Below, piece by piece: positions 26,536-40,409 of a stretch of 64,000 nucleotides of DNA (position 1 is its first letter; each line of letters starts with the position of its first letter). Under the pieces are notes generated by a model. That model was not told the DNA's origin and made no database searches. It was given only the letters and a program-made list of their open reading frames with translations. The stretch comes from Planctomycetota bacterium (GTDB taxonomy: Bacteria; Planctomycetota; UBA1135; UBA2386): positions 5,024,001 through 5,088,000 of the forward strand of contig OZ245838.1 of the NCBI GenBank assembly GCA_965228735.1. The letters run 5' to 3'. The translations under genes were made by a program, and so were the position numbers.

Positions 26536-26612
26536 GGGGGCGTAGCTCAATTGGTTAGAGTACCGGACTGTCGATCCGGTGGTTGCGGGTTCGAGTCCCG
26601 TCGCCCTCGCCA
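26536..26612 (+). tRNA. tRNA-Asp (GTC)
   Basis: Acceptor stem GGGGGCG/CGCCCTC, D-arm, anticodon arm CCGGA-CTGTCGA-TCCGG, TTCGAGT T-loop, G73, encoded CCA. Confidence 0.98.
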
Positions 26613-26616
26613 CACA
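26562..26616 (+). repeat. attL core (55 bp: 3' part of tRNA-Asp plus 4 nt)
   Basis: Identical to 40355-40409; begins at the symmetric anticodon arm. Confidence 0.95.
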
Positions 26617-26666
26617 GAACCCCTCGGAATGGCCCTCTAGGGCATGTTCCGAGGGGTTCTTCGTTT
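26616..26666 (+). terminator. Element-supplied terminator hairpin downstream of the tRNA
   Basis: AGAACCCCTCGGAA/TTCCGAGGGGTTCT stem followed by TCGTTT. Confidence 0.75.
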
Positions 26667-26678
26667 CAGGGGCGAAAC

Positions 26679-26727
26679 GGGGGAATCCGCGTCTTTCGCG
26701 AGAGCCGTGTCACCCAGGGTGTCACCG
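26679..26727 (+). repeat. Putative integrase arm-type sites, left (2x GTGTCACC)
   Basis: 40/49 identity to 40205-40253, same orientation. Confidence 0.75.
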
Positions 26728-26851
26728 GGCCGCGAGCCGCCTCGACGAGTGCGAGGTTGCGCTCCAGATACGACGACGCCCGGCGATCGAGGAACCTTGG
26801 CGGGGGACCGATCGTCGGGCGCTGTCCGAGCAGGAGGATCACCCGCGGCGA

Positions 26852-28435
26852 ATGCCGAGGGGGTTGCTCGTGACCGGCCACGATACAGCGGCCGTTCTGG
26901 CCGGCCAAGTGTCCGGGCAGCTTCGCGGCGAAGCGCACCTGTGGTTGCCGCGGGGCGTTGGGAATCCCGGCCTGCTCCTGGCACTCGCGCTCGATCGGGA
27001 CGCCGGCTGCCCCGACAACTGCACGGCGATCGGTCGGATGTTCGGAGTCGACCGCGGCACGGTCCGCGAGTGGAGACGGAAGCTCGAGGCCGACGGTCTT
27101 GTCGTGCCGTGCAACGGCTTCATCGTGGCGACGGACCTGGGTCGGGAGCGGCTCAAGGCGGGCTGCGACCCATTGCCGCGTCCAGTTCTTCGCGCACGGC
27201 GCAAGCCGTCGCCGGCCGTTCTCCGTGCATGCAGCGTCGTCTACACGGACGCTGTCGGGTGGCAGTCCGGACGCCGCGGATGTCGTAGCGACGCGGAGCG
27301 TGCGGCGCTGGCCGGGGTCGACCGGAAGACGGTCATCGCGGCCCGGCGCGTCTTGGTCGCCGGTGGTCTGGTGCAGATCGAGGAACTCCGGCGAGGACGG
27401 GCCGACCTACGGCGGGCTCGTTTGACCCAGGACCGCCGGGCGACTCACGGCCGGCCGATGTCCGAGACCCGTGCGAAGCAACTCGCAACCCGTGCTGCGC
27501 GTGGTCGTTCGCGTGTTCGCGAAGGTGGGGGATTCACGGACAGCGAAGGTGCGGCACTCTCGGACCCACCCATGCAGTCCCCGAAGGGGACGTTACCCAT
27601 GCAGGCGCCGCCGGCGGCGCAGGATGGTGCCGCTGCGCAGCTTCGACCGGATGGTTGTGCCACCCAGCAGAGACCTGAGCGCCGAACTCCCGCCACCGCC
27701 ACGTCGGCTGTGACTCTCGGGACGGCGTCCGCGGCCGAGGTTCTTCGGCAGGTGCTGCCGGACTTGCCGGCCGCGATCCGAGACCGAGCGTCCGAGCAGC
27801 AGCCGCACCGCGATCGGGTGCGCGAGGGCCTGGCACGCGCCGACCTCGCCCGCCTGCGTCGCGTGCCGGTCGTCGCAGCGATCGACGCCGTGCTGGGGCT
27901 CGCCGACGTCGACCGAGTGCCGAACGCTGGGCCGCGCTTGGCCGGGCAGTTGGTGGTCCGCCGCCGCCGCCGCGCGGTCGCGCTCGCCGCGGCCGGTCTC
28001 GACGTCGACGACGTGCTTCAGGTCGCCGTAGACGCCGCGACGGACCCGGTCCGCTCGGTCGGCGCAGTCGTCGCGCAGCGGTGCGCCCGGCTAGCCAGCG
28101 GCGCAGTCGGGGTTTGCGATGTCGTCCGTCGATCGCGCCGCGACCTGGACCTCGATCAGCGGCTCGCGGTGCTGCGCGGTGACGCGCCCGAACGGCGGCA
28201 CGACCCCGAACCTCGTGACCACGCCCCCCACCAGCGACTTGCGATGCTGGCCGCGGCCGAGGCTGCGCGGACCGACGACTGGCGCCGGGTCGACGCGCTC
28301 GTGCGCCGGCACGACTTGTCTCTCGACGAGGTCGCCGACGCGGCCGGCGTCTTCGAACGCGAAGTGCAGGAGCACCTCGACGACCTCACTTCCGGGCAGC
28401 TTCAGCGGTTCAACGCCGGGAGGGCGACCGCGTGA
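26852..28435 (+). CDS. Putative replication initiator with two HTH domains
   Basis: IGRMFGVDRGTVREWRRKLEADGLV and AALAGVDRKTVIAARRVLVAGGLV winged-HTH-like motifs, followed by iteron-like repeats. Confidence 0.65.
   Translation: MPRGLLVTGHDTAAVLAGQVSGQLRGEAHLWLPRGVGNPGLLLALALDRDAGCPDNCTAIGRMFGVDRGTVREWRRKLEADGLVVPCNGFIVATDLGRERLKAGCDPLPRPVLRARRKPSPAVLRACSVVYTDAVGWQSGRRGCRSDAERAALAGVDRKTVIAARRVLVAGGLVQIEELRRGRADLRRARLTQDRRATHGRPMSETRAKQLATRAARGRSRVREGGGFTDSEGAALSDPPMQSPKGTLPMQAPPAAQDGAAAQLRPDGCATQQRPERRTPATATSAVTLGTASAAEVLRQVLPDLPAAIRDRASEQQPHRDRVREGLARADLARLRRVPVVAAIDAVLGLADVDRVPNAGPRLAGQLVVRRRRRAVALAAAGLDVDDVLQVAVDAATDPVRSVGAVVAQRCARLASGAVGVCDVVRRSRRDLDLDQRLAVLRGDAPERRHDPEPRDHAPHQRLAMLAAAEAARTDDWRRVDALVRRHDLSLDEVADAAGVFEREVQEHLDDLTSGQLQRFNAGRATA
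27519..27604 (+). repeat. Iteron-like repeats inside the rep-like gene (putative origin)
   Basis: Two 23-bp copies (19/23 identical, period 24), then 2x ACCCATGCAG around a TCCCC-GAA-GGGGA hairpin. Confidence 0.5.
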
Positions 28436-38509: not shown

Positions 38510-38517
38510 GTGGTCAC

Positions 38518-38724
38518 ATGAACGCTACCGAATCCCGGCTGCTGACCACCGACGAACTGGCCCGACGGCTCCATGTCGGCAGCGCAAAGATTCGTGATCT
38601 GGCGCGCGCGGGCCGTATCCCGAGTATCCGAGTCGGCAAGGCTCTGCGGTTTGACTGGCGCGAGGTGGTCACAGCCTTGCGGACCAAAGGCAACGCGGAG
38701 CGCGAGGAGGCGCGGTCGGCATGA
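38518..38724 (+). CDS. Excisionase-like HTH_17 protein
   Basis: LLTTDELARRLHV...IRDLARAGRIPSIRVGKALRFD. Confidence 0.88.
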   Translation: MNATESRLLTTDELARRLHVGSAKIRDLARAGRIPSIRVGKALRFDWREVVTALRTKGNAEREEARSA

Positions 38725-39020
38725 GCGATTTGCCCGCAAGTCGCACGCCCGACGCCGGTCGGATGCTGAACGTCCGCGACCTGGCGCGGGACGTTGGCAT
38801 GCAGCCGGTGGACCTCGTGCGCGAACTCGTCGCCGATGGCGTCGCCGTCGCGCAGGTGACCGCGCGCGGCTACCGCGTCGCGTCGGCTGACTGGAACGAT
38901 TGGCTCGCGCGCCGGCAGCAAAGGTGCGCAGCGGCGTTCGAGCAGCGCGAGCGTCGGGCCGACTACGTTCGCGACCGTGAGGGCGAGCCGCCGAAGCGGC
39001 GGGCGGTGTTCACGCGATGA
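38721..39020 (+). CDS. Second Xis/HTH-like protein
   Basis: MLNVRDLARDVGM...GYRVASADWNDWL; ATGA coupling to the upstream gene. Confidence 0.65.
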   Translation: MSDLPASRTPDAGRMLNVRDLARDVGMQPVDLVRELVADGVAVAQVTARGYRVASADWNDWLARRQQRCAAAFEQRERRADYVRDREGEPPKRRAVFTR

Positions 39021-39025
39021 CGTTG

Positions 39026-40288
39026 TTACTGCGCGACAGCCTTCGGCCGCTTGACGCTCGGGTCGACCATCCAGAGCAACGGATCGAGTGCGCGAGCGGC
39101 GTAGTGGCGGACGTTCGTCGGCGTCGCGTGCTCGTAGCCGCGGCCGACTGTGCTCGGCGCATGGTCGGTGATGGCGTCGCGGACGTGCTCCGGCACGCCA
39201 GCATCGGCGAGAATCGTGCGGAACGAGTGGCGAAGTGCGTGCGGATGGAACCTGGCTCGGAGCCGCTCGGGCAGATCCTCCCGGCAGCGCCGGAACACGC
39301 GGTCGATCGTGCCCGTTCGGCGTTCGGTGTCCGTGCGCGGGCGGTTGCCGGGTTTCCGCGGGCCGCGAGCGGCACCGCATGGGATCAGGTGGCCGGTTTC
39401 ATCGGCGCTCTCGCGGAGCACGGAGAGCGCGTATGCCAACGGTGCGGCAATCGGCACGCGGCTGCTCTCGGATCGCTTCTGCGCGAGGTCGCGAACGAAG
39501 CCGGCCTGCTCGTCGATGTTCGCCACCGTGACATGGCACAGCCCCTCGCGGCGCAACCCCGAGAAGAGCAGCGCTCCGACGACTGCCGCATCCCAATCGG
39601 CCGCTCGAGCCGATCGCTCGCGCAGCGCGGCGAACAAGTCGCCGAGTTCGTCGATGTCGAACACGTCGCTCGATTTACGCTTCGCGCGAGGTCGCTCCAC
39701 GCGATCCAGCGGGTTCGCGCCGGCGAACCGGCCGCGCCTGATCGCGAGCCGGAACACCCGGTTGAGTGCGCCGAGGCCCTTTCGGATGCGTGTATCGCTT
39801 GGCGGCTTCCCGCGGACGCGCGCGGCACGGCGGGCGGTAACGAACTCGTCAATTCGGGTAGCCGTGATCGCGTGCAGCGGGGTGTCCGGACCGAAGAAGT
39901 CGCAGATCGTGACGAAGTGCTCGTGGTAGCTGCGCCAGGTGCCGTCGTTGCTGTTCACGGTGTCGAGCACTGCCTGGCAGGCTTCCTGAAGCGTGACGAA
40001 CTCGATGCCCTCTCCGGCGTCTCGGCGTTCGCGCATCGCAGCGGCGTCGCGTTTCGCCTGTTCCCTCGTCGTCCACGTGCCGACCTTGACCTTTCCGGCG
40101 ACCTTCATCCGCGCGCGGAAGCGCCAGCCGTCGTGCGAGAACCAACGGTGCTCGCAGCCAGCGACTTTGGCCGGTGCCTTCGTCTTCCGGAGGCGGCGTC
40201 GTTGGGGGGAATCCGCCAGTTTCGCGGGGTTCGTGTCACCCAAAGTGTCACCGCGCCGCAGATCGCTCTTTCGGGTCATGCCGTCCAT
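39026..40288 (-). CDS. int: Site-specific integrase (tyrosine recombinase with an arm-binding N-domain)
   Basis: SGLRREG, HALRH, DH...GY; basic beta-rich N-domain; adjacent to attR. Start uncertain (40279/40288/40315). Confidence 0.93.
   Translation of the reverse strand: MDGMTRKSDLRRGDTLGDTNPAKLADSPQRRRLRKTKAPAKVAGCEHRWFSHDGWRFRARMKVAGKVKVGTWTTREQAKRDAAAMRERRDAGEGIEFVTLQEACQAVLDTVNSNDGTWRSYHEHFVTICDFFGPDTPLHAITATRIDEFVTARRAARVRGKPPSDTRIRKGLGALNRVFRLAIRRGRFAGANPLDRVERPRAKRKSSDVFDIDELGDLFAALRERSARAADWDAAVVGALLFSGLRREGLCHVTVANIDEQAGFVRDLAQKRSESSRVPIAAPLAYALSVLRESADETGHLIPCGAARGPRKPGNRPRTDTERRTGTIDRVFRRCREDLPERLRARFHPHALRHSFRTILADAGVPEHVRDAITDHAPSTVGRGYEHATPTNVRHYAARALDPLLWMVDPSVKRPKAVAQ
40205..40253 (+). 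repeat. Putative integrase arm-type sites, right (2x GTGTCACC)
   Basis: 40/49 identity to 26679-26727. Confidence 0.75.
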
Positions 40289-40354
40289 TTGGCCATTGGA
40301 GGGCAGGAAGCGCAACTAATCGGAGATTGGAGAATGAGCCGATGCCTCGTAACA

Positions 40355-40409
40355 ACCGGACTGTCGATCCGGTGGTTGCGGGTTCGAGTCCCGTCGCCCT
40401 CGCCACACA
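40355..40409 (+). repeat. attR core (displaced 3' part of tRNA-Asp)
   Basis: 55-bp identity with 26562-26616. Confidence 0.95.

Follow-up and report, generated by a model that had tools for sequence, protein, structure and literature searches.

Phage-inducible chromosomal islands (PICIs) and Staphylococcus aureus pathogenicity islands (SaPIs) are the closest described counterparts of E1, the element analysed here. E1 occupies positions 26562..40409 of a 64,000-nucleotide stretch (the window; contig OZ245838.1, positions 5,024,001 to 5,088,000) of a Planctomycetota genome (GCA_965228735.1; G000, with other G-numbers denoting other genomes), where it lies between two att repeats. As set out in the texts of 10.1101/2022.09.14.508007 and PMC6092414, PICIs and SaPIs share with E1 their size, a tRNA att site, an integrase, xis, a gene for the small terminase subunit (TerS), cargo after terS, and the lack of capsid, tail and lysis genes; for SaPIs, redirection of helper packaging by the satellite TerS is established (PMC6092414). 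E1 differs in that int and att lie between rep and xis, and in carrying a nuclease fragment of the large terminase subunit (TerL), here terL-C, and a second tyrosine recombinase, int2, with sites of its own. Judged from its sequence, E1 is probably (roughly 0.65) a PICI-like satellite that likely hijacks a podovirus like the prophage resident in the same genome, a reading favoured by its intact boundaries and genes, its conserved layout, a TerS tail like that of the candidate helper, and a terL-C closest to the prophage TerL.

Among the features by which PICIs are recognised, E1 has an integrase with att sites, a TerS gene and, apart from the TerL fragment, no structural or lysis genes. Its genes do not follow the PICI order int-regulator-xis-pri-rep-interference-terS, and E1 is therefore not filed as a PICI member, though it may work like one. 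A first-pass annotation had likened E1 to PICIs in size and gene set; the likeness extends to size, tRNA att site, integrase, xis, TerS and missing capsid, tail and lysis genes, and stops short of a primase-replicase and an AlpA/Stl regulator, neither of which was recognised.

PICI-like tycheposons and marine virion-encapsidated integrative mobile elements (VEIMEs), as described in the texts of 10.1101/2020.12.28.424599 and PMC9618062, resemble E1 in combining a tRNA-targeting tyrosine integrase with xis and an optional terS, and VEIME TerS proteins are most like those of co-occurring phages (PMC9618062). The second recombinase of E1, however, is of the tyrosine type and not a small serine recombinase; in these texts, PICI-like tycheposons are reported without cargo and no TerL fragment is described. 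The PICI-like elements (PLEs) of Vibrio cholerae share the logic proposed for E1: Gpi, GpsA and GpsB block the helper TerL and exempt the element's own DNA (10.1101/2024.04.22.590561). However, Gpi binds TerL, whereas the candidate inhibitor in E1, with a putative action, is a disarmed TerL piece itself, and the serine integrase of PLEs (PMC9618062) is not found in E1, both recombinases of which are of the tyrosine type. Capsid-forming PICIs (10.1101/2022.09.14.508007) likewise hold a terL-derived gene in an element of satellite size, but they encode a full TerL, capsid and head-tail adaptor/connector genes, of which E1 has none. Planctomycetota find no mention in the SatelliteFinder text (10.1101/2022.09.14.508007), and a literature search, covering mostly journals outside subscription and the main texts of the cited papers, returned nothing joining phage satellites with Planctomycetes or Planctomycetota, no satellite with a BPP-1-type podovirus helper and no dominant-negative terminase nuclease domain.

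Boundaries and layout of E1 and its relatives

E1 is an intact island integrated at tRNA-Asp that carries no virion genes. Its att cores, 26562-26616 (attL) and 40355-40409 (attR), are 55 identical bases lying 13,793 bp apart; a 'tRNA-Ile' predicted at 40306-40405 corresponds to the half-copy at attR, and in the same-genus genomes G001 and G002 other sequence follows this tRNA-Asp. Paired GTGTCACC repeats stand just inside both ends of E1, similar pairs stand at both ends of the sister island E2, and they are likely integrase arm-type sites. The gene order is attL-rep-cc-sc-terS-terL-C-cargo-int2-HTH-xis-xis><int-attR, where HTH denotes a helix-turn-helix gene, and the features of the two ends are as follows.

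26536..26612 (+): tRNA-Asp(GTC), the intact integration target, overlapped by the attL core
26562..26616 (+): attL core, 55 bp
26707..26726 (+): tandem GTGTCACC repeats, likely an integrase arm-type site, oriented like the pair inside attR
26852..28435 (+): putative replication initiator containing two winged-helix motifs; its frame is already open at 26579 and the start is uncertain
28432..28701 (+): small conserved open reading frame (ORF) with homologs in E2, G025 and G005
37700..38509 (+): protein with a C-terminal HTH, 59.5% over 163 aa to its G002 homolog
38518..38724 (+): xis1, excisionase-family HTH (HTH_17 and TIGR01764 above cut-off)
38721..39020 (+): xis2, second HTH, head-to-head with int as in five relatives; contains a degenerate int2-type site at 38723-38746 (-)
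39026..40288 (-): int1, the tRNA-Asp integrase, above the Pfam Phage_integrase cut-off
40233..40252 (+): second tandem GTGTCACC pair, likely an arm-type site
40355..40409 (+): attR core, 55 bp

Much of what the first-pass annotation had reported here was borne out, namely the identical att repeats and their spacing, now located in tRNA-Asp; two tyrosine recombinases, int1 and int2 both exceeding the Pfam Phage_integrase cut-off; and a planctomycete host, the five genomes with 46-73% identical integrases being Planctomycetota. Of its three HTH/Xis-like genes, one is solid (38518-38724) and two have weak matches (phrog_66, E=0.045; phrog_2951, E=9e-4). Its statement that capsid, portal and tail genes are missing agrees with searches of 20 E1 ORFs against Pfam and PHROGs, which also revealed no lysis families, and of 16 against NCBIfam, though the TerL fragment at 30469-31047 had been overlooked; the structural genes that it named as a possible refutation were sought in 28847-30078 and none was found. 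The rep-like gene does follow attL directly, with a weak assignment: the matches are weak HTH ones plus phrog_270 at E=0.015, and the structural model (predicted local distance difference test score 61, built from two sequences) is a winged-helix fold with generic matches. By analogy, this ORF is weakly suggested to be a replication initiator because E2 and E3 carry AAA_25 helicase or primase genes in that slot. A terminator-like hairpin lies between the att core and rep, inside E1, and no sign that excision turns rep on was found in the sequence.

Among 90 further genomes from the family, 8 contain an int1 relative at E<=1e-25, and in all five of the relatives at 46-73% identity xis2 is head-to-head with int. 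Complete att-to-att elements at tRNA-Asp were found in G025 (18.2 kb) and G316 (16.9 kb), each with a rep homolog directly after attL and neither with portal or capsid genes. A partial element in G334, on a cut contig, retains rep, terS, xis, int and attR, and G315 and G018 retain the right end only. On this comparison, the layout attL-rep…xis><int-attR at tRNA-Asp, recurring in other Planctomycetota genera (two complete, three partial), is a family trait rather than the product of a prophage deletion. What follows rep differs between elements: in G316 it is a Nu1-type TerS with a virion-protein gene and a TipJ-like gene, and in G025 it is cc, a 107-aa ORF and cargo that reads as restriction-modification-like, with no terS. 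The TipJ-like tail-tip protein of G316 (L090:8403-11963, 1186 aa, NCBIfam, under cut-off) could alter particle host range. Conversely, the cc-sc-terS-terL-C block recurs on other backbones, in E2 and, with a shorter TerL piece, in G002. The proposal of a distinct satellite family thus stands as a satellite-like family, its order shared by elements at this tRNA in other genera and its module recurring elsewhere; gene order alone does not define it, because the same module occurs in E2 with the conventional int-xis-helicase order. More informative are the dead TerL domain, the hybrid TerS, the int2 sites and the candidate helper prophage, none of which the first-pass annotation had picked up.

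The packaging block, sister islands and candidate helper

The source genome also contains a 44.2-kb podovirus-type prophage at tmRNA with genes for TerS, TerL, a head-tail-connector portal, a scaffold-like protein (phrog_458), a GP7 capsid and tail proteins. It is presumably BPP-1-like, going by its gene set, the computed match being a Bbp19-like Pfam hit under the cut-off; with its TerL, portal and capsid as queries, no second such set was found in the genome. Of the sister islands, E2 (71007-78569, 7.5 kb, tRNA-Ala, 47-bp att) carries cc-sc-terS-terL-C behind int-xis-AAA_25 helicase and has a 54-bp non-coding block that is 81% identical to window positions 28769-28818, upstream of cc. E3 (1905896-1922105, 16.2 kb), a capsid-less island arranged in tandem with the tmRNA prophage and behind it, contains cc, a scaffold-like gene (phrog_458), terS, a full TerL of another type, primase-AAA_25, RadC and an int2 relative (53%), and E4 (1280386-1297800, 17.4 kb, tRNA-Leu) has cc, a Nu1-type terS, a head-maturation protease and a tape-measure gene, with no recognised portal. 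With E1, three sister islands that differ in their packaging kits, and a candidate helper together in one genome, this is a compact system for experimental tests. The packaging block of E1 consists of four genes.

28847..29674 (+): cc, a long helical coiled-coil-like protein common to most of these islands
29671..30078 (+): sc, a conserved protein (50% to E2, 32% to G002) in the position of the scaffold-like gene of E3
30075..30491 (+): hybrid TerS with a DUF5681-type core and a C-terminal tail like that of the resident prophage TerS
30469..31047 (+): terL-C, confined to the TerL nuclease domain and without its catalytic aspartates; starts at 30469 or 30523

The product of 30075..30491, already proposed as TerS-like on the first pass, is identified as TerS because its core matches a gene upstream of terL and portal, residues 24-117 being 48.5% identical to that gene in IMG/VR contig L135; the prophage-like tail adds to the case. 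This tail (residues 101-133) is identical to the prophage TerS tail at 19/33 positions (58%, E=2e-8), no other part aligns, and a TerS profile search recovers the same prophage segment. Such a tail is also present in G002 and E2, and is absent from E3, which has its own TerL. In several phages the C-terminus of TerS engages TerL, and by this analogy such a tail is what would be expected if a satellite TerS were adapted to helpers of this kind; the hybrid would then offer a sequence rule for matching satellites to helpers. A complex prediction for the prophage TerL with E1 TerS residues 92-138 scored 0.22 against a mark of 0.32, which points neither way. Two tandem TerS-like genes of the same family were seen in a small island of G337 (C70, L098:5643-6484).

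In terL-C, 127 matched residues show 46% identity to the prophage TerL, in its nuclease half (E=1e-16). Positions that do not vary among 16 full TerL relatives (D330, S484-P-D486) are replaced or deleted in terL-C, D383 is displaced and no ATPase domain lies ahead, the combination of ATPase and nuclease aspartates expected of an active TerL not being found. When 78 TerL-type sequences are scored with the terL-C profile, that of the prophage ranks first (105 vs 95 bits). In a quick tree of 56 rows, from which 26 sequences lacking the motif or too short had been dropped, the four dead forms (E1, P0002, E2 and P0003) make up one branch (Shimodaira-Hasegawa-like approximate likelihood ratio support 99) within an 18-row group that includes the prophage TerL (93). 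These four versions, 48-84% identical, share in-frame deletions and contain no stop or frameshift.

Homologs of cc occur in E2, E3, E4, G002, G025, G304 and G001, with a weak match to G316 (probability 24%). Its four matches in the source genome all lie in small islands and it was not found in the prophage; at E<=1e-4 the cc profile matched nothing in 400 phylum-wide genomes, and the ESM Atlas gave no usable match for cc or terL-C. The helical model of cc matches generic helical structures only (best Z 8.0), with no specific fold, and capsid remodelling is a guess at its role, a likeness to Sid or TcaP being no more than possible. The candidate identification of sc as a scaffold was dropped, hhalign against scaffolds giving a probability of 1% and a motif-level resemblance at most.

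At the prophage attR, a 12.5-kb contig of run X10 (L046:2295-2324) at prophage depth (4.8) leaves to sequence other than E3 (depth 9.4) and is possibly a prophage circle junction or a strain with another neighbour. The tmRNA island of G001 (C12, L024:6762-12103) reads as rep-like, cc-like, scaffold-like, acetyltransferase-like, portal-like and terS, with no TerL or capsid seen, and may be a satellite carrying its own portal.

Activity, mechanism and competing explanations

E1 or part of it is contained in 11 of 13 sequencing runs and is spanned in runs X6 and X7 by one 13.8-kb contig with 0 differences. Its depth in X6 is 11.8 vs 6.3-7.2 in the flanks (1.7-fold; 1.2-fold in X7), and E3 and the prophage end show no such rise. 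The excess is not separable from G+C bias and was rejected as proof of replication, an unrelated G+C-matched stretch having risen equally in X6.

That control stretch (7.5 kb, non-satellite, G+C 0.65, depth 12.3 in X6; recognised by its contig size, 7,484 vs 7,482 simulated) is one of several results that weigh against a helper-dependent satellite. No excision, circle or particle of E1 was seen in the runs, in which contig words of 31 letters are shorter than the 55-bp core and raw reads are thin; IMG/VR contains no close relative by cc or rep patterns, its integrases being distant only. The first ORF has no Rep-specific structural match, no primase or known Rep family was found in E1 with PHROGs, NCBIfam or a fold search, and profiles from Pfam, PHROGs and NCBIfam revealed no AlpA/Stl-type regulator, HTH_17/excisionase-type and weak HTH matches appearing instead. 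Neither cc nor sc matches known capsid-remodelling proteins. terL-C is rare: of 78 profile matches among 1.84 billion representatives (58 with the G-x-D motif), two, that of E1 itself and P0003, are stand-alone dead forms, while among the other 76 those inspected (14 read and 15 in the alignment, overlapping sets) are ordinary TerLs or pieces. It was not found in G025, G316 or the sequenced part of G334, nor, with a single query, in 60 relatives; G002 retains a 66-aa TerL scrap (34 columns, probability 81%), and a metagenome scan had one ordinary full TerL among the matches listed.

If E1 is nevertheless such a satellite, it would excise when a podovirus like the tmRNA resident goes lytic and would then replicate, the first ORF perhaps initiating. 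The hybrid TerS would steer the helper large terminase onto E1 DNA, its core reading an E1 pac site and its tail docking the helper TerL; cc and sc may disturb the capsid or change its size (the prophage is 3.2 times as large as E1), and terL-C could sit at the motor or portal as a decoy that does not cut. int2 may recombine the GTGCGACTT-N6 sites described below, resolving multimers or gaining or flipping cargo. In a bolder version, which is doubtful, the lineage would have domesticated the nuclease half of a helper TerL as a dead decoy that poisons packaging, with the hybrid TerS exempting satellite DNA and the second recombinase swapping helper-specificity and cargo modules at these sites, two of which bracket the cc-sc-terS-terL-C block. 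A true decoy would be a new satellite way of blocking packaging, built from the helper's own motor.

The main rival, itself unlikely, takes E1 for a satellite-derived island with a decaying packaging module: a podovirus segment from the terS tail to terL would have been captured, its ATPase half lost, and terL-C left open mainly by translational coupling and high G+C, in an island that is mostly cargo and may or may not be mobilised. It gains from a graded series running from the full TerL of another type in E3 through the dead domain of 174-192 aa in E1 and E2 and the scrap in G002 to none found in G025. In E1-versus-E2 comparisons the nonsynonymous/synonymous rates are 0.54/1.15 for terL-C, a ratio (~0.47) indicating only moderate constraint, and 0.62/1.22 for cc, 0.52/1.14 for sc and 0.68/1.44 for terS, all from protein-guided alignments near saturation with four-fold sites near random. 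These values also speak against decay, in that selection on terL-C looks like that on its neighbours, as do the shared in-frame deletions of four still-open versions, the intact int1, xis and att, and a database terL-C homolog at 85% identity, listed like a TerS homolog (72%) on a 7,594-bp contig.

A tycheposon-like integrative element that moves by vesicles, generalized transduction or an unrelated helper, its prophage likeness reflecting shared ancestry in a lineage-specific phage pool, is distinctly improbable. The backbone does occur without terS in G025, and tycheposons are described as sharing integration and replication modules across PICI-like and cargo types and as enriched in vesicles (text of 10.1101/2020.12.28.424599), but in E1 the TerS tail and terL-C both point to the same prophage type. 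Least probable, and largely refuted, is a deletion remnant of a full prophage. The broken-looking terL and two HTH genes beside the integrase would suit it; however, this integrase occurs in two further complete tRNA-Asp elements, of 16.9 and 18.2 kb, that contain neither portal nor capsid, the module recurs on unrelated backbones, the prophage lacks a recognisable cc, and blastn between E1 and the prophage yields a single 33-bp match.

The second recombinase, its putative sites and the cargo

Downstream of the packaging block, four near-perfect GTGCGACTT-N6-CTGTCGCAC sites bracket the cargo, and int2 precedes the last of them.

28705..28728 (-): degenerate int2-type site with an exact left arm and a right arm carrying 4 mismatches; G005 has one at the same position after the small ORF
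31076..31363 (+): 95-aa ORF ending at site 1, of uncertain reality; weak G025 match (E=0.009)
31365..31388 (+): int2-type site 1, a 9-6-9 inverted repeat with one mismatch
31389..36214 (no strand): cargo of about six ORFs, G+C 0.61-0.64 vs 0.71 in the left core
32359..32382 (-): int2-type site 2, inverted; its central 10 bases match site 3 at 9/10
35602..35625 (+): int2-type site 3
36217..36244 (+): 28-bp perfect palindrome ahead of the Phd-like gene, with no second copy in the genome; likely an operator
36259..36432 (+): small Phd/YefM-like protein (E=0.002, under cut-off), 77% over 35 aa to the gene preceding int2 in G002
36522..37523 (+): int2, above the Pfam cut-off, with the R..HxxR..W..Y pattern
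37528..37551 (+): int2-type site 4, separated by 4 bases from the preceding int2 stop

Their build, two arms flanking a 6-bp spacer, is compatible with sites for a tyrosine recombinase, although they may instead be purely regulatory binding sites. The core GTGCGAC-N10-GTCGCAC has four copies in the 7.19-Mb genome, all within E1, and none in window shuffles, and the left arm GTGCGACTT has six copies in E1 against 0.06 expected. Relatives of int2 occur in 8 of 90 other family genomes; the same arm lies within 30 bases after the stop at 2 of 10 other int2 loci (chance ~7e-7 if independent, which kin are not), and the G005 element has five arm copies, one after the small ORF as in E1. Against a link between int2 and the sites, no exact arm was found at 5 of 9 external int2 loci, and E2 has the packaging module without int2 or sites. 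Outside E1, a perfect site appears in 1 of 90 other family genomes, in a housekeeping context and likely by chance, and the pattern had no match in IMG/VR. No inversion or excision joints at these sites were seen in runs X12 (166 reads), X1, X6 and X7, in which contigs drop rare forms. A host SOS-box origin was considered and rejected, all four perfect genome copies lying in E1.

Known pdif-type and resolvase site cassettes likewise comprise short sites of two arms and a 6-bp spacer that alternate in orientation, stand at gene ends and bracket cargo. The E1 sites resemble them but, as far as shown, appear to track the element-encoded int2 rather than host XerCD.

PADLOC matched none of 10 ORFs and indicated no defence system in the cargo, in which ORF 33341-33877 matches phrog_30545, a family without an assigned function in PHROGs. 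At 34218-35600, a cysteine-rich 184-aa ORF with a signal-peptide-like start is followed by a 263-aa lipoprotein-like ORF, with no family match. Elsewhere in the genome, two further tRNA-linked islands without terminase matches were noted at 6934332-6942620 (8.3 kb, tRNA-Gln) and 5178190-5223000 (44.7 kb, tRNA-Pro).

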